From: Candidatus Omnitrophota bacterium
GTDB taxonomy: Bacteria; Omnitrophota; Gorgyraeia; JABMRN01; RBG-13-46-9
DNA length: 64,000 nucleotides
Assembly (NCBI GenBank): GCA_013203315.1
Contig: JABMQJ010000016.1
Location: 4,956-68,955 of the forward strand
Direction: 5' to 3'
Shown one piece after another: positions 37,199 to 39,091 of this stretch. The position numbers and the translations under genes are program-made. The notes beneath the pieces were generated by a model. The model was given only the letters and a program-made list of their open reading frames with translations. It did no database searches and was not told where the DNA came from. Position 1 is the first letter of the stretch. Every line of letters begins with the position of its first letter.

Positions 37199-39091
37199 AT
37201 GTTCGAAGCGCTGAAGATTTATAAGGGACAGGCTATTGACCTTGAGGAGACGTATCGCACCCTGACCGAGTTCGGGTATAAGAGGGTAGAAGCGATAACC
37301 GAAGAGGGCGACTTTAGCGCAAAGGGTGAAAACATTTTCGTATTTCCCGCCACTTTTGACTATCCCATTCGGATCGAATTGTTCCACAACGAAGTAGAAG
37401 GCATAAAAACCATCGACCCTGTATTGTACAAGGCCATATCGGACCATGAGATGGTTATTGTTCTGCCGATTAAGGGAATGCTCCGTAAGCGGAAATACAG
37501 GCCGCGTAAAATCCGCAAAGAAATCGACCCCATCGACACGTTTGTCGATATCGAGCCGTCTGATTACGTAGTCCACGTTGATTACGGTATTGGAAAATAC
37601 TTAGGCATTGAACGAATTAAGACAAAAACCGGCGCCGAAGACCATCTGGTCCTTGAGTACAAAGACGGCGACAAGTTATATGTGCCTTTTGAGGATCTGA
37701 ATAAAATCCAAAAATATATTGCCTTTGCCAAAAGGGCGCCGAAACTTTATAAAATCGGAAGCCGCAAATGGTCGCAGGCCAAGGAGCGTGCCCGTAAAAG
37801 CGTTGCGAGGGTAGCGTTTGAAATTCTGGAAATTCAGGCCAAAAGAAATATGCTGAACGGGTTTTCGTATTCCGGGGATACCGACTGGCAAGGCCTTCTG
37901 GAAGAATCGTTCCCACATAAAGAAACGAAAGACCAGATTAGGGCTACCGAGGAATTAAAAAAAGACATGGAGAGAAAAAAGCCCATGGATCGTCTCCTGT
38001 GCGGTGATGTGGGATACGGTAAAACCGAAGTGGCTTTGAGAGCCGCATTCAAGGCTGTTATGGACAATAAGCAGGTGGCAATTCTCGTTCCTACTACGAT
38101 TTTAGCCGAGCAACACTATATAACTTTCAAAGGGCGCATGAAGGAGTTTCCCGTAAATATCGCGATGCTAAGCAGATTTAGAACAAAGGGCGAGCAAGAT
38201 GTTGTTGTTGAGGACCTGCGCTGTGGCAGGGTAGATATTGTGGTCGGAACGCATAGGCTGCTTTCAAAAGACGTAAGCTTTGGCGACTTGGGGCTTGTTA
38301 TAATCGATGAGGAGCAGCGCTTCGGCGTAAAACACAAAGAAGAACTAAAGAGGCTTCGGCTTGTTGTCGATGTTCTAACACTTACCGCTACACCCATTCC
38401 GCGCACGTTATATCTTGCGCTCATGGGCGGAAGAGACATATCCGTTATCGATACGCCGCCGCTTGAAAGGCACCCCATCCAGACGCACATAACAGAGTTT
38501 GACGAGCAACTCGTAAAAAAATCCATAAAGCGTGAAATAGCAAGAAAGGGCCAAGTATATTTTATTCACAATAGGGTCCAGGGCATAGAAAAAGTATGCC
38601 AGCGTTTGAGGGGGATGCTGCCGGATATACGCATTACAATCGCACACGGCCAGATGAAAGAAAAAGAGCTGGAAAAAACAATGGGCGAGTTCATAAAAGG
38701 AAATATCGATGTTCTTGTCTGCACTACAATTATAGAATCCGGGATAGATATACCGAACGCAAATACAATTCTTATTAATAACGCTGACAGATTTGGGCTT
38801 GCAGATCTATATCAATTGCGCGGTAGGGTCGGGAGGTTCACAAGGCGCGCATTTTGTTACCTCATAGTAAACCATATTCAAACCCTGACGGGCGATGTTC
38901 AAAGGCGGCTTAATACAATAACGAAATATCAAGAGCTGGGGTCCGGCTTCAAAATCGCTATGCAGGACCTGGAGATCCGGGGTGCCGGCAATCTCCTGGG
39001 CACCCAGCAGCACGGCTTCATTGACAGTGTCGGCTTCGACCTTTACTGCCGCCTCCTCCGCGACGCCATCAGCGCGGTCAAAGCAAAGTAA
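37199..39091 (+). CDS. mfd: Transcription-repair coupling factor Mfd, short form (630 aa) lacking the N-terminal UvrA-binding module and the D7 region
   Basis: UvrB-homology remnant '[28 protein letters not shown]', CarD/TRCF RNAP-interaction domain '[21 protein letters not shown]', Mfd-specific helicase motif I '[23 protein letters not shown]', DEEQ box '[11 protein letters not shown]', motif VI 'QLRGRVGR'. Protein ends shortly after the TRG region. Confidence 0.8.
   Translation: [630 protein letters not shown]

Follow-up and report, generated by a model that had tools for sequence, protein, structure and literature searches.

Work on the transcription-repair coupling factor Mfd centres on the clamp between domains D2 and D7, which holds the free protein inactive. 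The other focus is the rearrangement of D1-D3 and D7 that takes place on the stalled polymerase before UvrA is bound. In Escherichia coli Mfd, deletion of either D7 or D1-3 derepresses the motor (PMC3025350), and a 25-aa linker between D3 and the RNA polymerase interacting domain (RID) tethers the D1-D3 module (PMC7864632). Truncated forms of the E. coli protein lacking D7 or the UvrB homology module have been engineered (Manelyte et al. 2010, PMC3025350; Smith et al. 2007, PMC1874598). Without D7, ATPase and translocation activities are derepressed, and strand-specific repair is still supported both in vitro and in vivo (Manelyte et al. 2010, PMC3025350). The Mfd of Thermus thermophilus is not autoinhibited; it is reported to be constitutively derepressed and to have a dynamic UvrB homology module, and the 2026 study of this one thermophile argued that autoinhibition of Mfd is not universal (PMC13453472). 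Our full-text literature search for natural short or D7-less forms of Mfd, or for nucleotide excision repair (NER) in Omnitrophota, returned nothing relevant, and no report was found of a protein that combines D2 with the motor and lacks D1a, D1b, D3 and D7.

The DNA analysed here (the window) is a stretch of 64 kb from an Omnitrophota bacterium, and contains a compact mfd gene (Table 1). A first-pass annotation of the window had reported an ORF of 630 aa at this place, with the end of argS located 25 bp upstream in another frame, and both were recovered in our analysis. Because an in-frame TAA stop codon lies directly before the start codon, the ORF cannot be extended at its N-terminus. This stop codon, together with the argS gene that fills the upstream DNA, ruled out a frameshift or an upstream extension, and the same short form is common to the relatives, in agreement with the earlier view that the missing N-terminus is not an artefact of frameshift or assembly.

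Table 1. Features of the compact mfd locus (window coordinates).
Feature	Coordinates	Strand	Basis and remarks
argS, upstream neighbour	35479..37173	+	Pfam Arg_tRNA_synt_N, tRNA-synt_1d, DALR_1; ends 25 nt before mfd, other frame
In-frame TAA	37193..37195	+	3 nt before the mfd ATG; stop-to-stop frame starts at 37196
mfd, compact form	37199..39091	+	630 aa + stop; order D2, linker, RID, TD1, TD2
D2, UvrB-homology UvrA-interaction domain (aa 4-91)	37208..37471	+	Pfam, alignment, HMM, AF2, dN/dS
Basic linker (aa 92-119)	37472..37555	+	Stands in place of D1b and D3
D4, RNA polymerase interacting domain, RID (aa 120-174)	37556..37720	+	Pfam CarD_TRCF_RID; PDB chains
Relay helix (aa 189-217) and translocase domain 1 (TD1, D5; Walker A, DEEQ)	37763..38458	+	AF2, Pfam DEAD, E. 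coli alignment
Translocase domain 2 (TD2, D6; motif VI)	38459..39088	+	Pfam Helicase_C; alignment to E. coli 988
Two tandem PpiC/SurA-type PPIase genes, then pdxA, rsmA	39366..41258 (PPIase genes)	+	Pfam; downstream of mfd

The protein, with a mass of 72 kDa calculated from its sequence, passed the NCBIfam equivalog model for mfd (TIGR00580; 874.2 bits against a cutoff of 800) and missed the longer proteobacterial model PRK10689 (644 against 1329). The best sequence matches in the PDB and the top Foldseek matches were Mfd structures. RecG, a homologous SF2 translocase with a TRG motif, was rejected as an identity. The RecG models scored 200-418 bits over aa 210-609, all under the cutoff, and the best of them (417.7 bits, cutoff 718) matched the motor only (aa 214-609); the protein has RID and D2 but no wedge domain. 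UvrB was rejected as well, as its models match aa 5-100 only, with 70 bits against a cutoff of 743, and the rest of UvrB, namely helicase domains 1a, 1b and 3 and the beta-hairpin, was not found. The N-terminal 90 residues are nevertheless homologous to the UvrA-binding domain 2 of UvrB (E ~1e-12 with the Bacillus subtilis and B. caldotenax proteins), which is here fused to an Mfd motor. Membership of the CarD family was ruled out by domain content and scores.

The neighbourhood also identifies the gene. The short-form loci have the conserved gene order mfd-PPIase/SurA-pdxA-rsmA, which they share with full-length mfd loci of other phyla; downstream of full-length mfd, a PPIase gene is present in Clostridia, Eisenbacteria, Gemmatimonadales and Lentisphaerota. 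Because the short gene lies in the usual mfd-PPIase-pdxA-rsmA position, the short protein is the orthologous Mfd of this Omnitrophota bacterium. The upstream genes differ among the related short-form loci. An Rfam search of the mfd flanks gave no match.

D2 is complete in the short protein, contrary to the earlier claim that the UvrA-recruiting module had been lost. The Pfam family UvrB_inter (PF17757) matches aa 5-91 with an E-value of 9.4e-19, covering 88 of 91 model positions, and a phmmer search against the PDB aligned aa 4-91 without gaps to residues 127-214 of E. coli Mfd. The core Mfd-UvrA complex in the PDB (4DFC) contains a 93-residue chain of E. coli Mfd, and positions 5-93 of this chain align to residues 2-90 of the short protein. 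D2 also matched, with an E-value of 6e-21, an HMM made from the D2 domains of 60 canonical Mfd proteins, and was modelled by AF2 with pLDDT values of 65-90. Between D2 and the RID lies a basic linker of about 25 residues. Its basic character is kept across 40 homologues, and aa 95-116 have pLDDT values below 50, a low-confidence prediction; the linker is probably flexible. Its C-terminal half aligns to the D3-D4 linker of E. coli Mfd (query 104-111 to E. coli 460-467).

The RNAP-interacting CarD/TRCF domain and the translocase had been described correctly in the first-pass annotation, as had the start of the protein in the UvrB-homology region and its end right after the translocase. CarD_TRCF_RID (PF02559) matches aa 120-174 (E 1.8e-18, 55 of 57 model positions), and this part also matches the isolated RID chains 3MLQ_E and 6YHZ_A. 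At the expected position of the relay helix, AF2 modelled aa 189-217 as a helix, and the Pfam families DEAD and Helicase_C match aa 244-403 and 443-547, respectively. In the phmmer alignment aa 104-629 correspond to E. coli Mfd 460-988, including Walker A, DEEQ and QLRGRVGR, and the RID, relay helix, TD1 and TD2 are about 48% identical to E. coli Mfd over its residues 449-988. In E. coli Mfd it is the C-terminal region of D6 that bears the TRG motif and the hook helices. As the protein extends no farther than the counterpart of E. coli residue 988, the D6-D7 linker and D7 are absent, and Pfam found no TRCF/D7 domain (PF03461) in the 630 residues. D1a, D1b and D3 are also absent, leaving D2 as the only part of the complete UvrB homology module (D1a-D2-D1b). 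The possibility that 630 residues hold compact equivalents of both D2 and D7 was thus correct for D2 and incorrect for D7, in agreement with the loss of D7 claimed before. The AF2 model had a pTM of 0.47, so its inter-domain geometry is unreliable; D2 may dock elsewhere within the molecule, which would give a different form of autoinhibition.

Compared with canonical E. coli Mfd (1148 aa; PDB 2EYQ and 6X26), the short protein is alike in the RID, relay helix, TD1/TD2, the D2 fold, the residues R181 and E183 and the gene neighbourhood. However, the canonical protein has D1a, D1b, D3 and D7, whereas the short form joins D2 straight to the RID. It is therefore without the D2-D7 clamp and without the D1-D3 module used for the loading and unmasking steps of canonical Mfd seen by cryo-EM. 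The Mfd of T. thermophilus (978 aa; PDB 6M6A and 13JQ) is also naturally shorter and provides a precedent that autoinhibition is not universal, but it retains a disordered D1a-D2-D1b module and D7, whereas D1a, D1b and D7 are entirely missing from the Omnitrophota form. The engineered E. coli protein without D7 resembles the short form in having D2 and no D7; the short form, in contrast, is natural, fixed in a lineage and also lacks D1a, D1b and D3.

The first-pass annotation had proposed looking for the short form in relatives, and it proved common to all sampled short-form genomes and to the best 120 database homologues. These homologues are 60-93% identical to the window protein and 545-675 aa long, 118 of them falling within 624-675 aa. 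UvrB_inter was found in 117 of the 120 and PF03461 in none, in contrast with a canonical Mfd query, all 120 homologues of which have PF03461. The N-terminus (MF..LK.Y) and the C-terminus just past YCRLL are identical in 40 aligned sequences. At 27 related loci the ORFs are 619-654 aa long; one further ORF, with its start called farther upstream, has 679 aa. An overlap of 4-20 nt between mfd and the downstream PPIase gene is frequent at these loci and leaves no room for D7.

We made domain HMMs for D1a, D2, D1b+D3, D4-6 and D7, and scanned 10 kb on either side of mfd on both strands. The short-form sample comprised 30 species genomes, named as Omnitrophota and in some cases as Planctomycetia or Planctomycetales. 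All 30 loci showed D2 and D4-6 only; no match to D1, D3 or D7 turned up in the 10 kb on both sides of mfd. The positive controls from other bacteria showed at all 50 loci every domain that the contig can hold, with the order D1a-D2-D1bD3-D456-D7 on complete contigs. A six-frame HMM search of the 64-kb window for D1a, D1b/D3 and D7 likewise gave no match (best E 0.15). Among 155 sequences (150 cluster representatives and 5 members), 146 were canonical and four had the D2-D456 arrangement, the latter being two representatives and two members of one cluster. A single neighbour-joining tree of D4-D6 placed 57 of 58 short forms in one clade, which suggests a single origin of the short form. To look for Omnitrophota with a longer or intermediate Mfd, the odd full-length neighbour P0266 was used as a query; its best 120 matches were all canonical and all had PF03461, and none of them was named as Omnitrophota.

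To estimate selection, dN/dS was calculated between the window gene and one relative of 93% identity. The omega values were 0.127 for D2, 0.06 for the linker, 0.10 for the RID, 0.11 for D5 and 0.10 for D6; every part of the protein, including D2, is under purifying selection. At the UvrA interface, the equivalent of E. coli R181 is kept in all 40 short forms compared and that of E183 in 37. Other positions have changed: R165, present in 59 of 60 canonical proteins, is K in 16, L in 11 and R in 7 short forms; D170, present in all 60, is F in 17 and T in 13; and F185, present in 43 of 60, is S in 13, F in 7 and L in 5. The window protein has R29, K42, R58, E60 and F62. Its clade carries K and F at the R165 and D170 equivalents, suggesting that UvrA binding may be weakened or remodelled, while one large clade carries L and T. 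The deep-branching short forms keep R165, D170, R181 and E183. Four residues, F53, H83, K6 and D38, are new clade-specific invariants at positions that vary in canonical Mfd. The most drifted residues of D2 are Q200, R201 and S202, which are specific to Mfd; because they are absent from UvrB, their loss fits the loss of contacts with D1b and D7 rather than a loss of UvrA binding. A tblastn search with E. coli UvrA and UvrB, which covered only about 560 kb of DNA from related genomes, returned only a cross-match to Mfd D2.

The unusual length, and nothing else, would suggest that the short gene is an artefact or a decaying pseudogene, produced by an assembly error, a frameshift or a recent deletion. 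Identical boundaries, however, are found in more than 100 protein clusters of 60-93% identity from independent samples and in the 30 species genomes, one of which is a closed chromosome; omega is about 0.1 in every domain, and the motor motifs are all intact. This reading is already refuted by the conservation data, and we give it practically no weight. Another explanation is a split Mfd, in which separate genes at other places in the genome supply D7, and perhaps D1, in trans. We consider this very improbable. No match to D1a, D1b/D3 or D7 was found in the areas scanned for such domains, i.e., the 64-kb window and the 10 kb on either side of mfd in the 30 related genomes, with HMMs that worked in the 50 controls. 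Split genes are usually adjacent, but in the short-form loci the mfd stop codon often lies within the next gene. The separately encoded D1-D2 partner that had been suggested is unnecessary, because D2 is present in cis, and the scans of the window and of the 10 kb on either side of mfd in the 30 genomes revealed no such partner.

A more serious alternative, although still an unlikely one, is that D2 has been repurposed: as a translocase the protein would displace RNAP or counteract backtracking, and it would no longer recruit UvrA. D2 may then make a new regulatory contact in cis with the motor or bind a different partner. The replacement in many short forms of R165, D170 and F185, which are near-invariant and common with UvrB, agrees with this idea, as do the new clade-specific invariants F53, H83, K6 and D38. 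On the other hand, exactly the UvrA-binding domain was kept while its surroundings were deleted, a pattern that is difficult to account for if its function is dispensable. There is almost no variation at the R181 and E183 equivalents, the deep-branching short forms retain R165 and D170, the drift at Q200/R201/S202 agrees with lost contacts to D1b and D7, and D2 has an omega of 0.13. With D2 retained, displacement of RNAP without coupling to NER, as proposed in the first-pass annotation, is not the default reading.

We therefore favour, as the somewhat more probable explanation, a lineage-wide minimal Mfd with the order D2-linker-RID-relay helix-TD1-TD2, which has no E. coli-type autoinhibition and in which D2 recruits UvrA. 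Such a protein probably still couples to NER. It would have arisen by three clean deletions at domain boundaries, namely of D1a, of D1b with D3, and of D7. The RID would bind the beta protrusion of a stalled RNA polymerase, and the motor, translocating on the upstream DNA, would push the polymerase forward or off the template. Because there is no D7 to clamp D2, E. coli-type autoinhibition and the unmasking steps would be absent, so that the ATPase/translocase activity and the D2 surface would be constitutively available; the derepression proposed earlier is plausible in this respect, as the protein is probably not autoinhibited in the E. coli manner. The tethered D2 would then recruit UvrA2B to the vacated lesion. 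Whether the whole lineage runs transcription-coupled repair with an Mfd that lacks D1a, D1b, D3 and D7, its UvrA-binding domain permanently exposed on a short tether, seems to us evenly balanced.

The Omnitrophota protein is a sharper natural case than the thermophile, since both the clamp partner and the scaffold are gone and purifying selection maintains the UvrA-binding domain. If the minimal Mfd is active, it would define the minimal functional coupling factor as D2, RID and motor, and would offer a compact 72-kDa target for structural and single-molecule work and an evolutionary separation-of-function map of the D2 surface. The E. coli loading steps would then be a regulatory add-on and not the core mechanism, and D2 positions that are invariant in canonical Mfd yet variable here would mark the constraint imposed by D7 and D1 contacts, not by UvrA. 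For annotation, caution is advisable: the short proteins are named 'transcription-repair coupling factor', and the missing half of the canonical protein goes unflagged.

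Because an in-frame TAA precedes the mfd ATG, the reading frame cannot be extended upstream, and with the second in-frame Met as far in as residue 85, only the ATG at 37199 gives the conserved N terminus. The coordinates and length in the first-pass annotation, and its statement that the short N terminus is not a frameshift, were borne out by the 630-codon ORF, the different frame of argS and the upstream stop.

Coordinates of the compact mfd gene, its surroundings and the Pfam domains of its product (window nucleotides, or residues where marked aa)
Feature	Position	Strand	Remarks
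mfd, compact ORF	37199-39091	+	630 codons
argS (arginyl-tRNA synthetase)	35479-37173		stop 25 nt before mfd ATG, other frame
In-frame TAA	37193-37195		one codon ahead of mfd ATG
rsfS ORF	35123-35509		overlaps argS start by 31 nt
Structured element	39166-39334		intergenic, between mfd and PPIase gene
Inverted-repeat arms of the element	39171-39197 and 39302-39328		27 nt, 93% complementary, 104 nt apart
Two tandem PpiC/SurA-type PPIase genes	39366-40280 and 40284-41258		downstream of mfd, then pdxA, rsmA
UvrB_inter	aa 5-91		E 9e-19, model positions 1-88 of 91
CarD_TRCF_RID	aa 120-174
DEAD	aa 244-403
Helicase_C	aa 443-547

A phmmer search against PDB chains aligned residues 4-91 without gaps to E. 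coli Mfd 127-214 (D2), and residues 104-629 to E. coli Mfd 460-988. By the E. coli domain limits of Deaconescu et al. 2006, this second stretch runs from the last part of the D3-D4 linker through the RID (D4) and the relay helix to TD1 (D5) and TD2 (D6). Further matches of the first 90 residues were UvrB domain 2 (E ~1e-12) and, in PDB 4DFC (the core Mfd-UvrA complex), positions 5-93 of the Mfd chain, which has 93 residues. The TRCF domain (PF03461), i.e., D7, was absent from the protein in the Pfam search. In the AlphaFold2 prediction (pLDDT 72, pTM 0.47), D2 is folded, with pLDDT 65-90, confidence falls under pLDDT 50 in the linker (aa 95-116), and residues 189-217 form a long helix at the expected site of the relay helix, which spans 548-577 in E. 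coli Mfd (PMC7864632). The best Foldseek matches of the predicted structure were Mfd structures. Judged from its sequence, the protein is composed of D2, a basic linker, the RID, TD1 and TD2, and is devoid of D1a, D1b, D3 and D7. The alignment thus left the truncation standing for these four domains and not for D2; the description of the protein as lacking the UvrA-recruiting N-terminal module was wrong on this key point. Of the UvrB homology module, the scaffold is lost, and the UvrA-binding domain itself is kept whole.

The short form is shared by relatives. Among the 120 best matches in 5.8 billion proteins (60-93% identity), all but two (545 and 576 aa) have 624-675 aa, none carries PF03461, and 117 combine UvrB_inter, RID, DEAD and Helicase_C; the named members are Candidatus Omnitrophota/Omnitrophica MAGs. 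Across 40 aligned homologues, the N terminus (MF[ED][AS][IL]K.Y) coincides, as does the C terminus, a few residues past YCRLL. With HMMs for D1a, D2, D1b+D3, D4-6 and D7 built from 60 full-length representatives, we scanned 80 loci from species-representative genomes. Only D2 and D4-6 were detected in all 30 short-form loci (51-79% identity), within 10 kb on either side and on both strands, whereas the 50 other loci (Clostridia, Eisenbacteria, Verrucomicrobiota, Lentisphaerota, Gemmatimonadales, Chloroflexota and others, by record titles) all contain each of the five domains that the contig end permits. Record titles place most short-form loci in Omnitrophota and some in Planctomycetia/-ales; a closed 1.43-Mb chromosome is among them, and so is Ca. 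Gygaella obscura. ORF length is 619-654 aa in 27 of them, save one whose call begins further upstream and reaches 679 aa, and the genes 5' of mfd vary in these 27 (argS, a ~730-aa ORF or opposite-strand genes). An exhaustive HMMER search covered 1.84 billion cluster representatives (50% identity), and only 2 of its best 150 matches were short; with 5 cluster members added, 146 of the 155 have the five-part canonical architecture and 4 are D2-D456 (two of the representatives and two members of one cluster), the others being fragments or near-canonical. In the comparison with a relative at 93% identity, D2 has a dN/dS of 0.127, the linker one of 0.06, and the RID, TD1 and TD2 have values of 0.10-0.11. 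Homologue lengths, HMM scans and dN/dS together show that the short form is a conserved architecture under selection, which is very probably characteristic of Omnitrophota. Next to this conservation, an assembly artefact or pseudogene has a negligible chance of being the explanation. In the six-frame translation of the 64-kb window, the only matches were D2 (E 6e-21) and the motor, both inside the mfd ORF, and nothing better than E 0.15 was found for D1a, D1b/D3 or D7. After these scans of the window and of the 30 short-form loci, we regard a split Mfd, with D7 or D1 encoded in trans, as improbable.

Whether D2 still serves UvrA was approached through the interface. R165, R181 and F185 of E. 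coli Mfd have been highlighted for UvrA binding, and two of them, R165 and R181, lie buried at the D7 contact as well (PMC3025350; PMC13453472; PMC7385628).

D2 residues in 60 canonical Mfd proteins and 40 short forms (E. coli Mfd numbering), with E. coli UvrB alongside
Position	Canonical	Short forms	UvrB
R165	R 59/60	K16, L11, R7	R196
D170	D 60/60	F17, T13	D201
R181	R 60/60	R 40/40	R213
E183	E 53/60	E 37/40	E215
F185	F 43/60	S13, F7, L5	F217
Q200	Q 60/60	Y29, F6	G232
R201	R 49/60	not conserved	Q233
S202	S 57/60	not conserved	I234

R165, D170, R181 and E183 are all kept in the short forms that branch deeply (51-58% identity to the window protein), which suggests that the ancestral short form had a canonical UvrA interface. 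At the equivalents of R165 and D170, the window's clade has K and F and another short-form clade L and T, so the interface may have been remodelled or weakened in some derived clades; the window protein itself has R29, K42, F47, R58, E60 and F62. Q200, R201 and S202 are Mfd-specific positions; they were probably constrained by contacts with D1b or D7, and would have been released upon loss of those domains. No uvrA or uvrB was found within ~560 kb of related-genome DNA. A D2 repurposed for another role, with no coupling to UvrA, would fit the altered derived interfaces and is at odds with the kept ancestral one; we consider it unlikely, though a good deal less so than a split protein. Because the interface is kept in the presumed ancestor and altered in some derived clades, UvrA binding by the window protein is likely but not secure.

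Domain content and boundaries, conservation, orthologous locus and purifying selection are the observed basis of the mechanism that we infer. The RID would anchor compact Mfd on the beta protrusion of stalled RNAP, and TD1 and TD2 would move along the upstream duplex DNA, pushing RNAP forward or off; with the relay helix kept, the DNA-wrapping step known from cryo-EM would stay possible. Since D7 and the D1-D3 module are absent, no D2-D7 clamp could form and nothing would have to be cleared from the motor's path, leaving the protein constitutively derepressed; D2 would stay exposed at all times, on a tether that matches the D3-RID linker of E. coli Mfd in length (25 aa; PMC7864632). Compact Mfd would essentially equal the engineered E. 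coli Mfd without D7, which is derepressed and retains strand-specific repair in vitro and in vivo, whereas deletion of the UvrB homology module abolishes strand-specific repair (PMC3025350). T. thermophilus Mfd is a precedent for a natural Mfd without autoinhibition (PMC13453472). The linker is conserved and Lys/Arg-rich (RKRKYRPRK) and, speculatively, might contact DNA. The presumed cost, sequestration of UvrA from global NER (PMC13453472), would need to be offset via expression level or else tolerated.

We classify the compact protein as an Mfd family member by its pass of the NCBIfam mfd equivalog (874 bits; cutoff 800), its RID, motor and D2, and its orthologous locus, even though two canonical features, a complete D1a-D2-D1b module and D7, are missing. 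Public databases already label short forms 'transcription-repair coupling factor'. Full-text literature searches found no paper on a natural Mfd without D1, D3 and D7 and no discussion of NER in Omnitrophota. A lineage-wide natural minimal Mfd keeping D2, of predicted activity, would be useful and somewhat surprising to specialists; it does not overturn the Mfd mechanism.

The order mfd, PPIase, pdxA, rsmA recurs in nearly all short-form loci. PPIase also lies 3' of full-length mfd in Clostridia, Eisenbacteria, Gemmatimonadales and Lentisphaerota, in some with pdxA and rsmA. There it begins ~480-1150 nt past the motor, just beyond D7, whereas in short-form loci it begins 33-538 nt past the motor, mostly within 260 nt. 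From this shared order and shorter distance, the compact gene occupies the place where mfd normally lies, and the stretch that encodes D7 has been cut out cleanly. In the 27 short-form loci, an overlap of 4-20 nt between the mfd stop and the PPIase gene is common and leaves no room for D7; it also suggests translational coupling. In deeper-branching short-form loci (L014-L027), tblastn with both window PPIases matched only the second, SurA-like one, and it is this gene that often runs into the mfd stop; the tandem in the window's clade may be a clade-specific duplication.

In a single neighbor-joining tree of D4-D6, 57 of 58 short forms make up one clade, suggesting that the short form arose once. 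The lone outlier is a 619-aa short Mfd from a Guaymas MAG (L025, QNCH01000208.1, 372-2231), placed among full-length sequences where the internal branches are very short; its placement reflects either poor resolution of that part of the tree or a second loss of the domains. Near the short clade lies P0266, a full-length-type Mfd (1025 aa, ENA metagenome contig) with D2, motor and D7, only ~158 aa between D2 and motor, and D1a and D1b/D3 too diverged or short for the HMMs. P0266 might represent an intermediate stage or a reduction of its own; all of its 120 best homologues have the canonical form, none named Omnitrophota.

The structured element behind mfd would fold as RNA into one extended hairpin (-70 kcal/mol; z = -9.05 vs shuffles). 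It has no Rfam match, and its arm sequence occurs once in the window. Candidate identities are a terminator or attenuator, a small RNA and a MITE-like insertion. In L081, the closest relative (Mfd 93% identical), a diverged left arm and loop stand in the same place, ahead of the contig end. An extra ~190-bp insertion directly follows the mfd stop there (L081 11894-12150 vs window 39092-39160) and bears its own perfect palindrome (GGATGCCTGCC...GGCAGGCATCC), and the argS-mfd spacer is 541 bp (9460-10000) vs 25 bp in the window (37174-37198). Around mfd, the turnover of small insertions, mobile or structured, seems to be fast. The run obg-proB-proA-nadD-rsfS-argS-mfd is collinear between the window and L081.
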